A stretch of DNA of 64,000 nucleotides from a virus (Duplodnaviria; Caudoviricetes): IMG/VR virus record IMGVR_UViG_3300011908_000001, positions 1 through 64,000 of that record; one strand, 5' to 3'. The notes beneath the pieces are model-generated. The model made no database searches, was not told the DNA's origin, and saw only the letters and a program-made list of their open reading frames with translations. Position numbers and translations under genes: made by a program. This document shows positions 1-23,491 of this stretch, one piece after another. The number at the start of each line of letters is the position of its first letter. Positions within the stretch are counted from its first letter, which is position 1.

Positions 1-3000
1 GTGCTTGGAGCCTTATTAAAGGTGCTGATGGAAAACAAGGTGTAGCTGGTCAAAAAGGGGAAGACGGACGTACTCCATACTTCCACACGGCTTACATTAA
101 CGACACTGATTTTGGTACTTATGATTACTCAGGGAACCCTAATTTATTTGTAAATACATTAAAATCTAGCGATTTTATCAAGGGTAGCCATGGGTCACTG
201 ACCGATGATGGCGAGATGTTACATTTTACGTCTGACGGTACAGGCGACATTAGCATGTTCACACGTGTTAACACGTCCGCTGTTACTAGTGGTAAAACAT
301 ATACTCTGAGTGCAAAATTACGATTTGACGAAGGAACAACTGGAGATATTAATAAATTAAGGTTGGTATATCGTAAAACACTTGGAGGAGATGTGTTATT
401 AGAAGCAAACAACACAAGCATGACAATAGATGACGTAGGAAAAGAAATTATAATCAAAGGTACCTCCAAGGTTGCGTATCAAATCACAGCTTTAGAACGT
501 TTTTACATTAGTGTTAGCTTTTCTCAAAATGGTAAAATAAACGGTGGCTTCAAATTGTCTCACATTAAGATTGAAGAAGGTTCAACAGCCACCCCATACC
601 AGCCAAATCTACTTGATGCCCCATATTACTTTAGCACAGTTCCACTTGAGGGGAATATCGCTGATCCATCAGTTAGCTTCCCAATTAAAACGAGCGCATA
701 CCGTTTATATGGTGGGAGCATGCTAGAAGATTTTAAAATTGGTCAAAGGTATACCCTTACAATGAAAGCAACTAAACCAGCTTCTCAAACGTTTTGGGCT
801 TACAATGGTGGGAATATTTCATTAGAAAGAATGACTCCAGTAGAAGGGTTAACTGATGTGTGGAGTTGTTCGTTTACTGTATTAAAAATAGATAGTGGTT
901 CACCAAGATTATTAAACATATATCAAACACAGCAATCAACAGTAGGTGCATGCCAAATTGACTGGCTAAAAATTGAAAAAGGTGACACACGAACACCTAA
1001 TATTAGTGCCTACAAGTATCTGGGAACCTATACTGACTTTGTGCAGGATGATTCACTAAATCCTACCAAGTACTCTTGGAGCCTTATCAAAGGTGCTGAT
1101 GGTGCTGATGGTCAGGATGGGGCGCCTGCACAGCTTTTGACACTCCAATCAGACACGCCGGTTATGAGGTTCGACTCAGCTGATGTGGTAGTGTCCGGTC
1201 AAGTGGTCACGTTTAATGCCTTTAAACAAGGTATCGAAAGTGGCATTATATGGACGGCAACCCCTTATAAAGGTAATACTGCACAGCCTAACATCACGCT
1301 AGGAGGTACGAGTGACACAAGAACTTTGAATGCCTCTCAATGGGATTCTGGCGTTACTACTATCAAGGTCGTAGTTAACGCAGGTGGTTTTACAGATACT
1401 GTTACTATCACCAAGGTTAAGGACGGTGCCAAGGGTGATAAAGGTGATTCCGGAGCTGATGGTATTGCAGGTAAGGATGGTGTGGGGCTTAAGTCTACAA
1501 CCATAACTTATGCGGCTTCTGCTAGCGGAACTGTAGCGCCTTCTTCTGGGTGGCAAGCACAAGTTCCTACAGTAGCACCTAACAACTTCTTATGGACTAA
1601 GACAGAGTGGACTTATACTGACCTTTCAAAAGAGGTTGGCTATTCAGTTGCTAAGATGGGAGCTAACGGTGCCAAAGGTGATGACGGGATTGCTGGTAAA
1701 GATGGAGTAGGTATTGAGGACACTCTAATTGAGTACGCTACTAACGCCAGTGGGACTGTTAAACCTACCTCTGGTTGGGCTACTTCAATTCCGGTAGTGC
1801 CTGCTGGTCAGTTCTTATGGACACGTACTACATGGACTTATACGGACAATACAACGGAGCAAGGATTCACTGTTGCCAAGCAAGGTGATAAGGGTGACAA
1901 AGGAGATACTGGTGCATCAGGTAAGGATGGAATAGCCGGCAAGGATGGCGTTGGGTTATCATCTACAACGATCACATATGCCTCATCGACTAGTGGAACC
2001 ACTGCCCCTACTACAGGGTGGCAGTCGCAGGTTCCCACTGTAGCTCCTAATAACTACTTGTGGACAAAGACCATTTGGAACTATACTGATGGGGATTCTG
2101 AAACAGGTTATTCAGTTGCTAAGATGGGTGCCGATGGAGCTAAGGGAGACGATGGGATAGCCGGTAAAGACGGTGTAGGTATAAAAACTACAGTAATTGA
2201 CTATGTAGTATCTACACAAGGAACAACGCCTCCAGCAAGTGGTTGGAACACCACTATCCCCGTTACTCCAGAAGGTCAATATTTGTGGACTAGAACTAAG
2301 TGGACGTACACTGATAACACCACAGAGACTGGTTACTCAGTTGCCAAGCAAGGTGCAAAAGGTGCTACAGGAGCCTCTGGTAAGGATGGTATTGCGGGTA
2401 AGGACGGCGTAGGTATTAAGACTACTGCAATAAGCTATGCTGGCTCTTCAAGTGGTACTACAGCACCTACTACAGGTTGGCAAGAGCAAGTTCCAACGGT
2501 TGCCCCAAATAACTTTTTATGGACTCGTACCATTTGGACATACACTGACAACACTACTGAGACGGGATACTCAGTTGCTAAGATGGGTGCTAATGGTGCT
2601 AAAGGTGACGATGGCATAGCTGGTAAAGATGGTGTTGGAATAGTTTCTACAACTATTGAATATGCCACTAGCACGGACGGTACAACTAAGCCTTTGACAG
2701 GGTGGACTACAACTGTCCCAACCGTTCCTCAAGGTCAGTTCTTATGGACTAGAACGACTTGGGCATACTCTGACAGTACCTCTGAGCAAGGATTCACAGT
2801 TGCTCGTCAAGGAAGTAATGGTAGCAACGGTAGCAACGGTGTGGATGCCTACAGTCCAATCCTTACTAACGAAGCTGCTACATTTGCAGCCTCCCCATCA
2901 GGTGCTGTAGCAGACTGGAGTGTTGGCAACGGAGTTTTCATGGTTTACAGAGGAACTACCAGATTGACTACAGGCGTTACTTATGCTGTAGAATCGGTCT

Positions 3001-4292
3001 CTTATGCAGAGGGTACTATCAATGCTTCTAGTGGTGCCTATTCTATCACTAGCCTTAGCAGGGATAATGGTACAATAACTTTCAAAGCAACTATAGGTTC
3101 TACGGTTCTTACAAAGACTATGTCACTAAGTAAGTCTCGTCAGGGTGCCACAGGAGCTCAAGGTGTTCAAGGCACCATGGGGATTGCTTTCTACTCTCCA
3201 ACAGAGCCGACTGGTAGCACGGTAACAAATGGCGCTACATGGTTCAAGACAGTTTCTGTGAATGACAATACGGTGGTAGGCATCTACACTCGTAAGAATG
3301 GTGCTTGGGTAGAGACTCCATTAGCTTCTGGAACGCTAGCAGTACAAGAGCTATCTGCAATCTCCGCCAACATAGGGGATATTACAGCAGGTAACTTGAC
3401 AGGTATTGAGATCACAGGTTCTAAATTCACCAACCCATTTGACTTTGTTGCTGCTGATGGCAATCACTTACAAGGTACTACATCTATCTCAGATGCCGAG
3501 CTAGATATCTCAGGTGCGGTAAACGCTGGTACAGCGAGTGAGCGTAAGTTCCACACATCTGTTGAGCCACTTTATTTCCAAGCGGTTTACTCAGATGCTG
3601 CTGACAATATCTTGAGATCGGTTAATGTGTCAAACTCTGGGTACACTATGAATGATACCACGTCTAAAATAACTACAGCCTTTTCATCAGGTCAGTTCCA
3701 AGCTGTTGATAACACAAATGGTAAATCAGTTATTGCAGGGCTAGATTCTGTGGGCATTAGAAACATTGACAATTCAGCCATAATGACTCCTAGGGGTTTC
3801 TTCTTAAATAACCGTAAGAACGTTGATATTTGGACAGGTACAGGGGATCAAACAAATAGCACTCCTAACAATGCACGGTTGAGATTTGGTACTTTTGTAT
3901 CATATGGCTGGGGAACACTTCCAGAAGACAACCCGTTTGAACAGGTTGCCCCATATTTGTGGAGAGTCAATCGAGAAACGAAATTTTCATGGAGGATTAA
4001 TGTCAACGTTCAAGATGCTACCACAGACTATTTGTACTTTAAGATGTACTTCAAAGATGCCCAAGACACTGATGTTAACCCACAAGCTCAGATTCAATCT
4101 GGTCGAATCACTTCGGAGACCAATAATGGTACAGGGATAAACCTACGGATGCAGAACACTGTATTCCTCCAAGGCTATCACAAGGCTCCTGCTGGAACAT
4201 ACTTCTCACTGGTAACTGAATGTAGGGCTGGGCGTAACTGTGGAAACATCAAAATTGAGAACGCCGAGTTTGTTGAAATTTTTGAATACTAG
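1..4292 (+). CDS. Tail fibre / host-specificity (antireceptor-like) protein with collagen-like G-X-Y stretches, 5'-truncated by the window
   Basis: The frame of ORF 216..4292 is open back to position 3 (AWSLIKGADGKQGVAGQKGEDGRTPYFH...). Contains GxxGxD collagen triplets, six TWTYTD-type repeats and two carbohydrate-binding-like modules, and lies just upstream of the lysis genes. Confidence 0.85.
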   Translation, partial: AWSLIKGADGKQGVAGQKGEDGRTPYFHTAYINDTDFGTYDYSGNPNLFVNTLKSSDFIKGSHGSLTDDGEMLHFTSDGTGDISMFTRVNTSAVTSGKTYTLSAKLRFDEGTTGDINKLRLVYRKTLGGDVLLEANNTSMTIDDVGKEIIIKGTSKVAYQITALERFYISVSFSQNGKINGGFKLSHIKIEEGSTATPYQPNLLDAPYYFSTVPLEGNIADPSVSFPIKTSAYRLYGGSMLEDFKIGQRYTLTMKATKPASQTFWAYNGGNISLERMTPVEGLTDVWSCSFTVLKIDSGSPRLLNIYQTQQSTVGACQIDWLKIEKGDTRTPNISAYKYLGTYTDFVQDDSLNPTKYSWSLIKGADGADGQDGAPAQLLTLQSDTPVMRFDSADVVVSGQVVTFNAFKQGIESGIIWTATPYKGNTAQPNITLGGTSDTRTLNASQWDSGVTTIKVVVNAGGFTDTVTITKVKDGAKGDKGDSGADGIAGKDGVGLKSTTITYAASASGTVAPSSGWQAQVPTVAPNNFLWTKTEWTYTDLSKEVGYSVAKMGANGAKGDDGIAGKDGVGIEDTLIEYATNASGTVKPTSGWATSIPVVPAGQFLWTRTTWTYTDNTTEQGFTVAKQGDKGDKGDTGASGKDGIAGKDGVGLSSTTITYASSTSGTTAPTTGWQSQVPTVAPNNYLWTKTIWNYTDGDSETGYSVAKMGADGAKGDDGIAGKDGVGIKTTVIDYVVSTQGTTPPASGWNTTIPVTPEGQYLWTRTKWTYTDNTTETGYSVAKQGAKGATGASGKDGIAGKDGVGIKTTAISYAGSSSGTTAPTTGWQEQVPTVAPNNFLWTRTIWTYTDNTTETGYSVAKMGANGAKGDDGIAGKDGVGIVSTTIEYATSTDGTTKPLTGWTTTVPTVPQGQFLWTRTTWAYSDSTSEQGFTVARQGSNGSNGSNGVDAYSPILTNEAATFAASPSGAVADWSVGNGVFMVYRGTTRLTTGVTYAVESVSYAEGTINASSGAYSITSLSRDNGTITFKATIGSTVLTKTMSLSKSRQGATGAQGVQGTMGIAFYSPTEPTGSTVTNGATWFKTVSVNDNTVVGIYTRKNGAWVETPLASGTLAVQELSAISANIGDITAGNLTGIEITGSKFTNPFDFVAADGNHLQGTTSISDAELDISGAVNAGTASERKFHTSVEPLYFQAVYSDAADNILRSVNVSNSGYTMNDTTSKITTAFSSGQFQAVDNTNGKSVIAGLDSVGIRNIDNSAIMTPRGFFLNNRKNVDIWTGTGDQTNSTPNNARLRFGTFVSYGWGTLPEDNPFEQVAPYLWRVNRETKFSWRINVNVQDATTDYLYFKMYFKDAQDTDVNPQAQIQSGRITSETNNGTGINLRMQNTVFLQGYHKAPAGTYFSLVTECRAGRNCGNIKIENAEFVEIFEY
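1423..2813 (+). repeat. Six ~75-80 aa tandem repeats in the tail fibre, alternating A/B types
   Basis: Each unit reads DGIAGKDGVG..T.I.Y...SGT..P..GW....P......LWT.T.W.Y.D...E.G(Y/F)(S/T)VA(K/R)(M/Q)G. Units 1,3,5 carry QVPTVAPNN and AKMG; units 2,4,6 carry PxGQ(F/Y)LWTRT and A(K/R)QG. Confidence 0.95.
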
Positions 4293-11272: not shown

Positions 11273-11378
11273 AGTTTTATAAGGTACTACAAAGTGCTTT
11301 AAATATTAGCTCAATGTTATCTATGAATTATGTGACCAACAGGTTAGGGGGTGCGGAAACACCTCTTAACCACATTAC

Positions 11379-11477
11379 AGGGGAGTGGCGTGAGGGCATG
11401 CGCACCTGAGAAACCAGGGTCAGGTAATAATCAGCTGATAAAACTGACATATCGTAGGTTCGAATCCTACCTCCATC
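11379..11477 (+). ncRNA. tRNA-like element (non-canonical; anticodon not assignable)
   Basis: Perfect T arm GTAGG-TTCGAAT-CCTAC; D stem GCGT/ATGC; partial acceptor GGAG/CTCC; oversized anticodon-like arm ACCTGA-10 nt-TCAGGT; long variable arm. Confidence 0.55.
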
Positions 11478-11584
11478 TATACTTCCGTTAAGGAAGCTTT
11501 TGTAAAATCACCCCCCCCATGACTTCACAAAAAATAATCAAATATTTTTTCGAGATAAATGGTAGTAAATATATTAAATAAATC

Positions 11585-11985
11585 AGGGAGACTCTTTAAA
11601 CCGTAACGGACATTTCGGTTTAAACTTCTCCTTACATAATTCCTAGCGAAACGGGTGGAAGAGGCGTATTCCCGTTTAGTTGATCTTAGATTTACTAGGA
11701 CTTCAAGTTCGCAAGAAACTTAGGCAGACGTGTCCATCCTCTAAGTACAGGTCAGAGAGGTTTCCTCCTTATAGTTTTTCACATAGCACCGATTGCCCTT
11801 TAAAGGGGCTGACCTAAGCATTATCACCTGAATGCGTTCATAGTGGTAGCAACGTCGTTAAACTGCTCGGCTCTTCGGAGCCTACATAATTGTGAGTGAC
11901 CTGAATGGCTTTAGGTAAGGTCTCTGAAACGGTAGTATGAGCCACATACTTGACCCGAAGAGAGTGTTGACCACTTGGCTCTCTT
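11585..11985 (+). ncRNA. Series of unidentified structured RNA elements
   Basis: Stems TTTAAACCG/CGGTTTAAA, CCTAG/CTAGG, AAACGGG/CCCGTTT, C-GCAA-G tetraloop, GGCTC-TTCG-GAGCC, AGTATG-AGCCA-CATACT, AAGAGAG/CTCTCTT; units separated by TACATAATT at 11633 and 11883. Confidence 0.55.
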
Positions 11986-11994
11986 ACTTTAGAT

Positions 11995-12537
11995 AGGTTG
12001 TTAGTGTAGTAGGTAACATAGGCAGGAGGTTAGTTTTGAAAGAGTTTATGTATGGTTATTTAGTTAATGAAGACGGGGAGGTTTTCTCCACTAAGTATGG
12101 TAAGTTAAGAAAGTTAAAGGGCAGGAAAAATCAAAAAGGGTACCTTATGTATGTTTTGAGTTTCGAAGGTAAAACCCAAGACTTTTCAGCTCACCACTTA
12201 TCGTACTATGTAAATATTAGTCATTTCGACACCTCAGATGGTCTTCAAATAGATCACATAGATGGTAACAAGTTGAATAATAATTATTTAAATCTTAGGA
12301 GAGTAACACCTAAAGAGAATTACAATAACCCATCTACTAAGCCTGATAGTCGAGGAAATAAAAGTCCTAGATACTTAGAAATAGACATGGATGAATTAAA
12401 GGATCTTTTTATTTCAGGAGAGTCTATAAGGAGTATTTCGAAGCATTTCAAATGCTCAAGGCAAGTGGTAAATAGTAGACTTTCGAAGCTAAACCTATAA
12501 AAAAACGCCGACAGGGGTTCGAATCCTCTACGACCTG
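11995..12537 (+). tRNA. Split tRNA-like gene whose anticodon arm is occupied by an HNH gene
   Basis: 5' half: acceptor AGGTTGT (11995-12001), TA, D arm GTGT-AGTAGGTA-ACAT, A, GGC. 3' half: GCC, GAC, T arm AGGGG-TTCGAAT-CCTCT (12513-12529), acceptor ACGACCT (12530-12536), discriminator G. Confidence 0.7.
12036..12500 (+). CDS. HNH homing endonuclease with C-terminal HTH
   Basis: YLVNEDGEV N-terminus; SAHHL...QIDHIDGNKLNNNYLNLR HNH motif; SIRSISKHFKCSRQVV HTH; TTG start with RBS AGGAGG. Confidence 0.85.
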   Translation: MKEFMYGYLVNEDGEVFSTKYGKLRKLKGRKNQKGYLMYVLSFEGKTQDFSAHHLSYYVNISHFDTSDGLQIDHIDGNKLNNNYLNLRRVTPKENYNNPSTKPDSRGNKSPRYLEIDMDELKDLFISGESIRSISKHFKCSRQVVNSRLSKLNL

Positions 12538-12546
12538 TATAAGTTT

Positions 12547-12720
12547 TCGGCTACCGAGTGGTCGAGGCTTAGAGGGAGGGCGGTCTCCCTTAAATGAACA
12601 GCGCACGTAGGCTTCCATGTCGAAGCCCTTTGAACTCCCTGATAAAACGAGAGGTGCCTACCAGATCGTATGCGCACAGGGAGGATTAGTACGAGACTTT
12701 GGGCTCGCAGTCAGATAAGA
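12547..12720 (+). ncRNA. Unidentified pseudoknotted RNA
   Basis: Stems GCGCA/TGCGC, GTAGGC/GCCTAC, CCTTT/AGAGG whose loop CTCCCTG can pair with downstream CAGGGAG; extra hairpins AGGGAG/CTCCCT and CGAG/CTCG. Confidence 0.55.
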
Positions 12721-12735
12721 CAGAAAAATCAGCTG

Positions 12736-12801
12736 TAGGATTTGTAGTAGGTGCAGTCAGGTAAAGGCGCCTGATGGGGAGTTCGAATCTTCTCAGTCCT
12801 A
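12736..12801 (+). ncRNA. Short (66-nt) tRNA-like element
   Basis: 7-bp acceptor TAGGATT/AGTCCTA, mini D arm TGTA-GTAGG-TGCA, TCAGG/CCTGA arm with 8-nt loop, T arm GGGGAG-TTCGAAT-CTTCTC. Confidence 0.55.
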
Positions 12802-12810
12802 TTTTAATTA

Positions 12811-12884
12811 GTGGTAGTACCGAAGCGGTTTAACGGCTCGGATTGCAAACCCGATGTTCAGGGGTTCGAATCCCCTCTACCACT
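12811..12884 (+). tRNA. tRNA-Cys (GCA), CCA not encoded
   Basis: Acceptor GTGGTAG/CTACCAC, D stem CCG/CGG, anticodon loop TT-GCA-AA (A31.C39 mismatch), T arm AGGGG-TTCGAAT-CCCCT, discriminator U. Confidence 0.85.
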
Positions 12885-12947
12885 TAGGGCACACGCCCTT
12901 TCCATATGAGGTTTAAATTCCTCTTTCATATTTTTCCTCCCCTTTTA

Positions 12948-12985
12948 CCCATTACATCGGAAAGTGTAGTGGGGTTTTTTATTTT
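12948..12985 (+). terminator. Terminator closing the RNA cluster
   Basis: CCCATTACAT-CGGAAA-GTGTAGTGGG followed by a T run. Confidence 0.85.
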
Positions 12986-19255: not shown

Positions 19256-19810
19256 ATGGCTAAAGAAAAAGCACCCGTATTTAAGAAGATTGCCCAGTAC
19301 AAAAAAATCGTGGCGAATGTCAACCCGTTTATTGCCATCGGAGACCTAATCGAAGACCATAATTGGGAGTATCAAATGGACAGAGTAACTAAGGATATTA
19401 TCAAAGTTCCTACACGTAAAACTTACCTTATGTGTGAGGGGTGTGCCTCTTGCCGAGAGATTACTAAACAGGGTAAATTAATTACAGATTGGAAAGTGGC
19501 TCAAATAGTTACTAAGCCCCTTGAAGAGTGGTCTAAAAAAGAAGTGTTGAGTCTAGTTTCCAAGCGGTACTCTATCAGGGAGTTGGCTAAAGTTTCAGGG
19601 GTTAAGACAGCTAAGGCTTTTATTAGCACTGTTAAACCATTATTCAACGATGATAAAGGGATTCGCTCATTGCTTTTCTACAATATTCCATACAGCGTGA
19701 TTAAGCTGTTAACCGGTATTTCTCCAGAGGAATACGAAACTTATAAAAAGGAGTATGACGAAGAGTTCGAAGAGCTACCATTAGATTTCACAGAAAAGGT
19801 TGGGGTATAA
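19256..19810 (+). CDS. Hypothetical protein (possible DNA-binding)
   Basis: CEGCASC motif; SIRELAKVSGV helix-turn-helix-like segment. Confidence 0.65.
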   Translation: MAKEKAPVFKKIAQYKKIVANVNPFIAIGDLIEDHNWEYQMDRVTKDIIKVPTRKTYLMCEGCASCREITKQGKLITDWKVAQIVTKPLEEWSKKEVLSLVSKRYSIRELAKVSGVKTAKAFISTVKPLFNDDKGIRSLLFYNIPYSVIKLLTGISPEEYETYKKEYDEEFEELPLDFTEKVGV

Positions 19811-19811
19811 T

Positions 19812-21374
19812 ATGTTAAACGTTAACTTATCACTAGGGGAAGACTCAGAGAAAGATGCTCATGAAGCCATTAAAAAGGCTAATAAGGCAAAGGAAATACC
19901 AACACTTGAACAGTCATGGGAACTTATCTTTAGTAGAAAGAACTCTAAGCCTGACTTGAAGCGCCTTGAAATTGTCAAAGGTCTTATGGAAGAAGGTAAG
20001 CTAGGTCGTGAAGAAGATAAGCTACACAAAGCTTTCTCAAAGGCTGAGGCACTACGCCTCTACAAACGCTATCAAGAAACCATGCGAGACCAACGCCTTC
20101 AAGAAATCATGGTGAAGGATAACGAGTTCTTTCCCTTGGTAACAGAGCCAGCTAAAATCACGAAGCTTGTTCATGGAATTTTAAGAGCTGACGGAATGCC
20201 TTTGTTAGAGGCAGAACATATGGTGTCTGTCGATACAGAGACGGTTGGTGAAGCTGGGGGTGTGGACAAATATCAGGAGCGTATCGCAGGATGGTCACTA
20301 ACCTATAAGATAGGTGATGAATACTTTAATGGATACATTCCTATCGAGCATTATAAAGAGGTTTCAGAAGGCGTATGGGAGCCTGATGAACGAAACGTCC
20401 AATATGACATTGCAATGAACGCCTTGTTGTATATTTTCCGTAGCGGTGTTGACACAGTATGGCATAACGCCACGTTTGACTTAGGCTTAATTTACACCTT
20501 AACCAAGGAAGAACCTGTAGGTAACGTCCACGATACGATGATTATCATGCACCTTTTACAAGAGGATCGTACAGAGGCTGGTAAGAACTACCGTTTGAAA
20601 GACCTTGCCACGGAGTTCCTTGGAATCGAGTCCCAGACTTTTGAAGAAATGTTTGGTAAGAATGCCAAGTTCTCACAGGTTCCTTTAGATGCTGCCAGAT
20701 GGTACGGTGCCAAGGATACTTGGGTAGGCTACAAGTTACTGGAATGGCAAGTCAAGATACTTTCTAAACCACAGTTTGCAAAGATTCTAAGAGCATATAA
20801 CCATATTGAGATGCCTTGTATCAGAGAAACTTTCCATACAGAGCGTACAGGATTCAGTATGAATATGACAGAAGTAGAAGCTCAGAAGAAGGAATGTGAA
20901 GAACGTATTGAAGAGTTGAAAGCAAGCCTCTCAGCGAGATTTGGGGAAGTAAACTTTGGGTCACCTGCTCAACTACAACGTATGTTGTACTTTGACAACG
21001 ACTGGAGCCAATATGTGAATAAAGATCATAAGAGTATTTTAGATGGTCATATTAAGTTTGATGAAAATGGCGTAAGTAACAATGGTAAATTTGCCATGAC
21101 TAAGTCTGGATCGATCATTTTAGACCCTAAAGTAGATAAAGGTTCGACAGTAATCTCTAAGACAGGTGCTAAACTTCCTGCCGATTCAGATGCTTTGAAA
21201 TCCATTGCCAAACACGCTCCAGAGGTTAAGGACTTGCTTGAGTTGAAAGATTTAACAAAGCATTTAACTTCCTTTGTAGAGAAGATTCCAAAGATGATTT
21301 CACCTGATGGAAGACTTCACGGAGACTTCAAACAGAGTAGTACCGTGACCTTGCGATATACTGCAAGCAACCCT
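19812..21374 (+). CDS. DNA polymerase family A, exon 1 (3'-5' exonuclease domain and start of the polymerase domain)
   Basis: SVDTET, HNATFD, HDTM and YGAKD Exo motifs; ends ...RYTASNP at the 5' splice site. Confidence 0.9.
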
Positions 21375-22462
21375 AAACTAAATTGGGGTTGTAAAACTGT
21401 GTGAACTGCGGGGAAACATTTAACTTAATAGGTACCAACTCCACTCCGGAAACGGGTAGAGGGCTTAGCTAACTACTAAGGTAGGGTAAAAAGCCTATTA
21501 AGGTGCAATCCGCAACCAAGGTGCTAAAGCGATTAGCCATGCACAAGGTTCAGAGACTAAATCAGACTACACCTTTGTCGAGAGGACATAGGGAAGATAA
21601 GCAGAGTAAAATTTGTGAAGTCTGAAAGAGAGCTAATAAGGAGCTCGTAGCGCACAGGTCTTAGGGTAACGCCTAAGATGTGATATAGTCCTTTAGATAC
21701 CACGCCAAAATAAACCTTAAAGGAGCTATTGATGGAACACTGGAAAGAGCATCATTTGAACTCTACTTATGAGGTCAGCGATTTAGGAAGGTTGAGAAAT
21801 AAAGATACCGGAAGGATACTTAAAACAGAGGTAATAAATTCTGGATACGAGCGGGTGACCCTCCCTAAAGTACCTAGAGGAGGAGACGAATTGGTACACC
21901 GAATAGTTGCCATCGCTTTTTGCGAGGGTTATCAGGAGGGTTTGCAGGTAGACCACATAGACGGTCAGAAGCTCAATAACAAAGCTTCGAACTTGCGATG
22001 GGTAAGTGTCTCTCAGAATATTAGGTATAACATTGATAGAGGTACTTTCAATTCTCATACGGCAAGGGAAGCACTTTTAAGTCTCCAGAAGAAATCAGTA
22101 AAGCAGTATGACAGATTTACAGGAGATTTTATCAGGGAGTACGAATCGCTCAACCAAGCATCCAAGACGGTAGGTATCACTGCAACAGCTATTCATAAAG
22201 CCTTAAAAAGAGATAGCAAGTCTACTAAGTTATATAGGTGGGAATGGAGTAATCCAAATAGCGAACATACTCAGCGAGCCTGTAGAATAAAAGTAGTAGA
22301 CTTTGAAGGGACACCTCATATATTCCCCAGTGTTAGGAAGGCTTCTGATTTCATAGGAGTAGATAATTCAACACTTCATAACCAACTCAAGAAAGGCGAT
22401 ACAATAAGTTATAGGGGATACGATATTACTAAGATATAAACCATTGGCGTGGTAGTCTAAAA
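21375..22462 (+). mobile_element. Group I intron (IA2-like, 1088 nt) carrying an HNH gene in the P9 loop
   Basis: P1 CAACCCU/GGGGUUG with U.G at the splice site; P element AACTGCGGGGAA, Q AATCCGCAACC, R CAGAGACTA (21551-59), S TAGTCC (21686-91); P3 CTGTGT/GCACAG; P8 TCTTAGG/CCTAAGA; P10 TAAATT/AATTTA. Splicing restores NP|NLQQ, the same site as the SPO1 polymerase intron. Confidence 0.93.
21732..22439 (+). CDS. Intron-encoded HNH homing endonuclease (NUMOD4-HNH-NUMOD1, I-HmuI-like)
   Basis: YEVSDLGRLR, VHRIVAIAF, VDHIDGQKLNNKASNLRW, YESLNQASK. Confidence 0.9.
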   Translation: MEHWKEHHLNSTYEVSDLGRLRNKDTGRILKTEVINSGYERVTLPKVPRGGDELVHRIVAIAFCEGYQEGLQVDHIDGQKLNNKASNLRWVSVSQNIRYNIDRGTFNSHTAREALLSLQKKSVKQYDRFTGDFIREYESLNQASKTVGITATAIHKALKRDSKSTKLYRWEWSNPNSEHTQRACRIKVVDFEGTPHIFPSVRKASDFIGVDNSTLHNQLKKGDTISYRGYDITKI

Positions 22463-23491
22463 AATTTACAACAACAGCCTTATAAAGCACGTATGATGTT
22501 CGAGGCACCAGAAGGACAACTTATCCTAAGTGCCGATTTTAGTCAGCAAGAACCCCGATTAGCCGCTCACATGAGCAATTGTAAAGGGCTTATTGAATTG
22601 TATCAGAACGAGCGTGACTTGTACTCTGAGACAGCCGCTTCAATCTTTGACAAACCTTTAGAGGAGTGTGGGGATGGCTCCATTTACCGTAAGCAGACAA
22701 AAGTTGTGGTACTTGCCGTTTTATATGGTATGTCTCACTTCACGTTAGCGGGCATTCTTGGCATTTCGAATGATGAAGGTAAAGAGTTGATTGACAACTT
22801 CTATAAGACTTACCCAGAACTTCATAAGTGGATTCAGAACAATGAGAAAGAAGTTGCTAAGCAGAAGTATGTGGAGACTCCTTGGGGCACTCGTAGACGT
22901 TTCACACGGACTAACTTCAACCTTCCGAAAAAACCTTGGGGAGCGATGACTGAACAAGACCGCAAAGATAGAAGCGCCGTTAACCGAGCTTTACGTCAAG
23001 CTACTAACGCTAAGGTGCAGGGTTCTGCATCTATGCAGACTAAACAAGTTATGGTAGCAGCAGGGAAGCTTCTAGCAAAGCTTAATAAAGCACGTGGTGC
23101 AGAAGTGTTCCAATTCCTCGGGCAAATTCATGATGAGGTCTTGTACCTTGTTCCAGAGGATGCCAAGAAGGATGAGATCGAAGCCATTAGAGACGTGATG
23201 ATTAACACTGTCACACTTGTTGTCCCTTCTAAAACTGACATGGCTTTAGGAAAGTGTTGGGGAACTCTTCAAGAGGTGGATTACATTGACCAAGAAACTT
23301 ACATGGTGGGAAGTGTTAAAGCCAATATGAAGACAGATTTAACAGAGGGTGTCGGGGAGGTTGTTAGTTGGAAGAAACCTTCTTATAAACCCTTAGGAGA
23401 AGTATTTGTAGATGGTGTGGCTACAGGAGTAACAATGTCTGAAAGAGAGTGGTCAGAGGCTACTACAAAATTCTTTGATAAGAAGAAATAA
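22463..23491 (+). CDS. DNA polymerase family A, exon 2
   Basis: NLQQQP, ADFSQQEPR (motif A), KVVVLAVLYG (motif B), QIHDEV (motif C); spliced product ~863 aa. Confidence 0.92.
   Translation, partial: NLQQQPYKARMMFEAPEGQLILSADFSQQEPRLAAHMSNCKGLIELYQNERDLYSETAASIFDKPLEECGDGSIYRKQTKVVVLAVLYGMSHFTLAGILGISNDEGKELIDNFYKTYPELHKWIQNNEKEVAKQKYVETPWGTRRRFTRTNFNLPKKPWGAMTEQDRKDRSAVNRALRQATNAKVQGSASMQTKQVMVAAGKLLAKLNKARGAEVFQFLGQIHDEVLYLVPEDAKKDEIEAIRDVMINTVTLVVPSKTDMALGKCWGTLQEVDYIDQETYMVGSVKANMKTDLTEGVGEVVSWKKPSYKPLGEVFVDGVATGVTMSEREWSEATTKFFDKKK

Follow-up and report, generated by a model that had tools for sequence, protein, structure and literature searches.

Among characterised elements, the intron described here comes closest to the polA introns found in Staphylococcus phage K and in Saphexavirus phages of the TV16 type. 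The introns of phage K (Kayvirus) and of the Enterococcus Saphexavirus TV16 and Pumpjack occupy the same NP/NLQ site in the polymerase, share the P1 guide and the P10 pairing and likewise encode an endonuclease of the HNH/NUMOD type. The first ~35 nt of the present intron show 91–94% identity to the Staphylococcus phage introns. The phage K/TV16-type introns differ, however, in that their ORF is located before the P7 3' strand (a P8-type insertion), in the short P9 hairpins that follow P7 and in their terminal G. Phage polymerase introns with an HNH endonuclease are also represented by the polA introns of SPO1, SP82 and Bastille, which belong to subgroup IA2 and encode the HNH nicking endonucleases I-HmuI, I-HmuII and I-BasI (PMC3428280).

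The terminal guanosine of the intron, omega-G, is taught as near-invariant for group I splicing. It is near-universal in group I introns but not strictly defining, as two accepted members lack it. The hexacoral ND5-717 intron ends in A and its exons are perfectly ligated in vivo (PMC6545197). Cbu.L1917 of Coxiella burnetii is a self-splicing 23S rRNA intron, one of two such introns of which one "lacks the canonical omega G", as the title of the 2007 paper by Raghavan et al. states (J Bacteriol 189:6572, cited in PMC3428280). A first-pass annotation of the DNA analyzed here had proposed that a phage polA intron ends in A, and had mentioned rare precedents in coral mitochondria; the coral precedent is borne out by ND5-717, but the bacterial one of Coxiella had been missed. 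Both differ from the phage intron. ND5-717 is a mitochondrial, vertically inherited giant intron of another subgroup, which harbors genes in P8 and is devoid of a homing endonuclease. Cbu.L1917, which by that title resembles the present intron in lacking omega-G, interrupts a bacterial rRNA gene and not a phage protein-coding gene. No omega-A phage intron was found in the literature searched.

The intron is located in a viral record of 72,375 bp (IMGVR_UViG_3300011908_000001) that is rated complete (100%) by CheckV. The window, i.e. the whole stretch of DNA that was analyzed, comprises the first 64,000 nt of this record. Among named phages, the closest to it are EH802P1/P2, EH93P1/P2 and 9181, Enterococcus phages of ~72 kb with ~80% identity in the polymerase gene. 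The ends of the record cut a long, internally repetitive tail-fibre gene (70134–72320 plus 3–4286, the latter being 1–4286 of the window), the homologue of phage 9181 ORF120, which indicates that the "linear" contig is a circular permutation broken in a repeat. In the region 11273–12985, a tRNA at 12811–12884 was the only Rfam match, and at E<=0.01 Rfam detected no further group I intron anywhere in the window.

A DNA polymerase of family A (Pfam DNA_pol_A_exo1 and DNA_pol_A) is encoded in two halves by the ORFs 19800–21404 and 22493–23491. PF00476 is matched once in the whole 72-kb record, by a polymerase that is split between profile positions 128 and 131. As the record is complete according to CheckV, this single match indicates that polA is single-copy and needed. 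The reading frame of exon 1, which is also supported by tblastn with residues 2–534 of phage 9181 polA, meets a stop 10 codons into the intron. The features of the locus are the following:

19800..21374, plus strand: polA exon 1, 525 codons, ending in AAC CCT (Pro); 3'-5' exonuclease domain and beginning of DNA_pol_A (PF01612; PF00476 profile positions 51–126)
21375..22462, plus strand: group I intron, 1088 nt; exact length from intron-less homologue, Rfam RF00028 match
21368..21391, plus strand: P1 hairpin; the last 7 exon bases (21368–21374) pair with the internal guide 21385–21391, with U21374.G21385 at the 5' splice site (from the sequence)
21375..21691, plus strand: ribozyme core P1–P8, including putative P7.1/P7.2 hairpins (Rfam alignment, MFE fold, family alignment)
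21379..21384, plus strand: intron strand of P10; pairs with 22463–22468, the first 6 bases of exon 2 (6 bp)
21397–21403 with 21651–21657, plus strand: P3
21407–21412 with 21509–21514, plus strand: P4
21553..21559, plus strand: P7 5' strand; G21555-C21690 is the canonical guanosine-binding pair, A21554 a bulge
21658–21665 with 21672–21679, plus strand: P8
21686..21691, plus strand: P7 3' strand (Rfam and family alignments)
21692..21708, plus strand: P9.0/P9 5' strand; begins immediately after P7
21720..21725, plus strand: AAGGAG, ribosome-binding site 6 nt upstream of the endonuclease ATG (from the sequence)
21732..22439, plus strand: HNH homing endonuclease gene in the P9 loop, 235 aa; NUMOD4, HNH_3, NUMOD1 and I-HmuI-like NUMOD (Pfam)
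22444..22461, plus strand: P9/P9.0 3' strand; G22455 is bulged; ends one base before the 3' splice site
22462, plus strand: terminal intron nucleotide (omega), A (from the sequence); the homologous position is A in L115 and lineages A and D, G in lineages B and C
22463..23491, plus strand: polA exon 2, beginning with AAT TTA CAA (Asn first); rest of DNA_pol_A (PF00476 positions 139–380; tblastn)

The borders of the intron were derived from the intron-less polymerase gene of Enterococcus phage EH802P1, in which CCT AAT TTA CAA is continuous. The match with EH802P1 spans 357 nt in this phage versus 1445 nt in the window, so that the insert is exactly 1088 nt long. The insertion point is CCT/AAT, within the conserved polymerase motif NP/NLQ. 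The first-pass annotation had placed the intron at 21375–22462, with exon 2 starting at 22463 and NP/NLQ restored, and the comparison with EH802P1 proves these coordinates right. Position 22462 lies inside a run of six A. The first bases of the intron are AAA and those of exon 2 are AA, which lets the junction slide along this run by −1 to +2, but the last intron base is then always A and never G. The earlier reading of an A in place of omega-G is thus confirmed.

The ribozyme is recognized by the Rfam model Intron_gpI (RF00028), which matches 21365–21696 over model positions 1–253 with an E value of 1.5e-8; the score of 40.3 bits does not reach the curated threshold of 50 bits. The same P1 hairpin as in the window occurs in TV16, in phage K and in all members of the intron family described below, and the core columns are invariant over its six lineages in the family alignment. 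P9.0/P9 consists of 17 bp; the MFE fold recovers this helix, and its 11-bp perfect core was also detected as an inverted repeat. In addition, the MFE fold predicts two hairpins in the P7.1/P7.2 region (21562–21647), which also appears as an inverted repeat. The structure as modelled would fit an IA2-like build with extra, putative P7.1/P7.2 hairpins. The structural elements on which the first-pass annotation had relied, namely the U.G pair of P1 at the 5' splice site, P10, and a P9.0/P9 helix that runs from P7 to one base before the junction, all hold. This also applies to the G-binding pair of P7, which it had called canonical: the G-C pair is retained in the Rfam and family alignments, and a search of the family alignment for a compensating change of the pocket to A-U yielded none. 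By comparison of sequences, the predicted 3' splice site of the polA intron is fixed by the intron-less homologue, by the 6-bp P10, by the flush P9.0/P9 helix and by recurrence in relatives.

Two short motifs were observed around P7 and the splice site. The 3' strand of P9 holds, at 22453–22458, a second copy of the P7 3'-strand motif of 21686–21691 (TAGTC plus one base). This copy could replace the P7 3' strand in pairing with the P7 5' strand 21554–21559; the "bulged" G22455 would then be taken up in the helix, and just 4 nt would separate P7 from the splice site. Such an alternative-P7 switch is an idea at this stage, as a repeat of five bases can arise by chance. The terminal "aG" of the Rfam model was aligned to AG at 21695–21696, right after P7. 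The sequence TTTAG directly 3' of P7 is common to three of the four A-ending lineages (the window, A and D) and to none of the two G-ending ones. It complements the bases before omega, and it could alternatively serve as a cryptic omega-G.

The endonuclease gene in the P9 loop shows significant Pfam matches to HNH_3 (E 3.8e-10), NUMOD4 (E 3.1e-7) and NUMOD1 (E 4.2e-7). Like the SPO1, SP82 and Bastille introns, the window intron thus combines a phage polymerase gene with an HNH endonuclease, and an I-HmuI_NUMOD-like domain is matched with 25.5 bits, just below the cut-off of 27 bits. No maturase-type domain was detected by Pfam. Judging from its domains, the protein is predicted to be an I-HmuI-type HNH homing endonuclease that is encoded within the intron at its own target site. 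A second TAA (22458–22460) follows in the frame of the gene, 7 codons past the stop at 22437–22439 and at a distance of 2 nt from the splice site. In lineages A and D, the endonuclease gene stops at the place that matches this second TAA, and its ORF runs through the P9 3' strand.

Five homologues of the endonuclease (P0115, P0121, P0002, P0110 and P0003) can be aligned end to end, with pairwise identities of 32–59%. The genes of all five occupy the P9 loop of polA introns that are inserted after the same Pro codon in uncultured phages. In these family introns, the helix that brackets the gene begins 0–2 nt past P7, and exactly one base separates its end from the 3' splice site. Outside the core, the introns of the relatives show 45–47% nucleotide identity with the window intron. 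The six lineages and their terminal bases are:

Window, endonuclease P0001: A
L115, endonuclease P0115, the closest relative (47–48% identity): A
Lineage A, 11 assemblies (L010–L012 and L025–L032), endonuclease cluster P0002: A
Lineage D, L117 and L118, endonuclease P0110: A
Lineage B, L016, L033 and L034, endonuclease cluster P0003: G
Lineage C, L116, endonuclease P0121: G

A comparison of the terminal base in homologous phage introns, which the first-pass annotation had proposed as a check, hence gave A in three further lineages and G in two. Overall, A occurs in four of the six lineages (three of the five relatives of the window intron) and G in two of six. A tree of the endonucleases consists of two clades with 100/100 support, one formed by the window, L115 and L116 and the other by lineages A, D and B. 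Each clade mixes A and G, which indicates that omega changed at least twice. Between the introns of lineage A and lineage B, identity is 62% and the P7 strands do not differ, but omega does (A versus G). Omega has hence switched between A and G with no change of the pocket, so A would be tolerated in this family.

The introns of lineage A are 99–100% identical, whereas 300 nt of the flanking exon are 93–100% identical. That the intron is more alike than the exons suggests that it is still homing among viable phages. The lineage A contigs are up to ~150 kb long, and carriers in the family include contigs of ~110–150 kb. The polymerase of lineage A shows 52% identity to that of Lactobacillus phage LfeInf, and the carriers are unrelated to the 72-kb phage of the window. 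The polymerase genes of lineages A and D contain a second group I intron downstream (2331–2525 in L025, 2307–3161 in L028–L031 and 2416–2598 in L117). It harbors a ~190-aa ORF in some cases and none in others, and it ends in G in L117. A profile search of IMG/VR with the endonuclease alignment returned 80 loci, none of which has the architecture of a polA intron with the endonuclease in the P9 loop. The endonuclease homologues P0028, P0007, P0016 and P0054 were not accepted as family members, as they are free-standing or occur in other contexts. L019 shares a 25-mer of the core, but it was rejected as a relative of the polA introns because this ORF-less intron resides in a gene that does not encode a polymerase.

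Across the family, P10 changes in concert with the start of exon 2, and co-variation is seen in P9 as well. Three different exon starts occur, each with a matching guide, and changes are found in lineages B and D. Each lineage thus gives an independent placement of the splice site. The co-variation of P10 also bears on the question of whether a different 3' splice site, following a G, is used. The candidates are the bulged G22455, which would insert 2–4 residues, and G22477, which would delete NLQQQ in frame. Either can keep the reading frame, G22455 with a shifted and G22477 with an unshifted 5' site, but neither has a P10 partner in 21375–21384, and the products break the invariant NPNLQ motif that is continuous in intron-less homologues. 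With G22455, the end of the 5' exon would furthermore have to lie elsewhere than at the U.G pair. The distance to the first downstream G is not the same in lineages A and D, whereas the flush helix and P10 mark the same bond throughout. Splicing after either of these G residues is therefore hardly credible.

The same co-variation argues against an absence of splicing, in which case each exon ORF would yield a separate polypeptide of the polymerase. Gene callers do annotate two polA ORFs in such phages, and the exon 1 frame meets an early stop. However, the first in-frame ATG of exon 2 (22493) is not preceded by a Shine-Dalgarno sequence, and its position is 10 codons downstream of the break, in a region of conserved motifs. 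Moreover, an intact core with P1 and P10 co-varying with the exons over six lineages would have no reason to persist if splicing did not occur, and a permanently divided polymerase is extremely improbable. A ribosomal slip on the A run was considered as well and rejected.

The first-pass annotation had left open whether the A reflects a functional omega-A intron or a base-call error within the A run. In the case of a base-call or assembly error, the true base at 22462 would be G, changed by substitution or lost within the run. The homopolymer leaves room for such an error, and so does the fact that the sequence of the window intron comes from one contig only: its endonuclease cluster has a single member, and the intron is known from a single assembly. 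No other copy of the window intron was detected in three exact-pattern scans of viral contigs, and a scan of viral contigs with the endonuclease peptide yielded no close relative. The sole match of a metagenome scan, L009, proved to be a chance hit in unrelated DNA. However, the homologous position is A in three other lineages, one of which is represented by 11 independent assemblies from several samples, and the same six bases precede the splice site in three of the four A-ending lineages. In addition, tblastn of 152 phage 9181 ORFs against the genome revealed no genuine gene that is frameshifted among ~100 conserved ORFs. An assembly prone to homopolymer errors would show such genes, which indicates that this one is clean, and an error would presumably have had to strike precisely this one base of 72 kb. 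Owing to the recurrence of A in the other lineages and to the clean assembly, a base-call error at 22462 appears very unlikely, and the option of a functional omega-A intron is favored over it.

A search of public sequencing runs gave two that match the region, both aquatic metatranscriptomes in which its share is small. Their contigs cover 21368–21665 only, and the 3' splice site is not reached. The contigs are 100% identical to the ribozyme core including the 7 exon bases at the 5' junction, which is also compatible with DNA carry-over, and fold-back joins occur in them at the hairpins P1 and P8. A joint from 21376 to 22508 with 43 other letters between was not accepted as a spliced form, as it corresponds to an intron-less relative with ~85% identity.

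Taken together, the locus is probably a genuine mobile IA2-like group I intron in the single family-A polymerase gene, with a homing endonuclease gene in the P9 loop and a last nucleotide that is truly A. A functional omega-A intron is the best reading of the sequence data, from which exon ligation at A22462/A22463 is predicted. The first step of splicing would be canonical, in that an exogenous guanosine, bound by P7 in its intact G-C pocket, attacks after U21374. For the second step, geometry and not the identity of omega would place the 3' splice site A22462/A22463. P9.0/P9, which starts at the end of P7 and finishes flush one base before the site, would position the 3' splice site, and the 6-bp P10 would align exon 2 beside P1. 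Held in the active site by P9.0/P9 and P10, the A22462-A22463 bond could tolerate the loss of specific omega-G binding.

In model introns such as that of Tetrahymena, mutation of omega from G to A severely impairs exon ligation when the pocket is a G-C pair. The studies of Michel and colleagues in 1989 and of Been and Perrotta in 1991 reportedly showed that a G-C pocket disfavors omega A and that an A-U pocket is needed to accept it. If this discrimination applies here, splicing of the window intron may be slower than in its G-ending relatives or may depend on protein. It is thus conceivable that the A is real but that the ribozyme alone cannot ligate the exons, and that splicing relies on a protein, be it a host factor or the intron-encoded endonuclease in the role of a maturase, or is inefficient and limits the polymerase. 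The canonical G-C pocket of P7 would fit this possibility, since such a pair discriminates against A at omega in the Tetrahymena ribozyme. So would the hexacoral omega-A intron, which was shown to splice in vivo and not as naked RNA (PMC6545197). On the other hand, Coxiella Cbu.L1917 is, by its title, self-splicing in the absence of omega-G. Within the present family, close relatives differ at omega (A or G) but show no further change that can be seen, which makes it improbable that a dedicated helper evolved each time, and the Pfam search of the endonuclease gave no maturase-type domain. Dependence on a helper or inefficient splicing is therefore unlikely, if less so than a sequencing error.

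For the functional omega-A intron, we tentatively propose that omega-G might be unneeded for the second step despite the G-C pocket, and that omega might drift freely between A and G because P9.0/P9 and P10 set the site; this generalization is possible but doubtful enough to be treated with reserve. A bolder version would be that A is favored, as its presence in four of six lineages might suggest, because it suppresses 3' splice-site hydrolysis and intron circularisation, both of which depend on omega-G. These side reactions would otherwise cut the endonuclease message directly upstream of the splice site.

The window intron does not represent a novel type of ribozyme but joins a known rare kind, the introns with a natural omega-A, and within it stands for a small family that has A more often than G. 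What is new is a polA intron family of one architecture and one insertion site in unrelated uncultured phages, with a mixed A/G omega. Intron finders and gene callers that demand a terminal G would misplace or miss such introns, leaving essential phage genes split in annotation. Lineages A and B form a closely matched natural pair with A and G, respectively, which lets simple in vitro A/G swaps test how a G-C pocket copes with a terminal A. The main value of the family is this matched A/G pair for the study of 3' splice site choice without omega-G.
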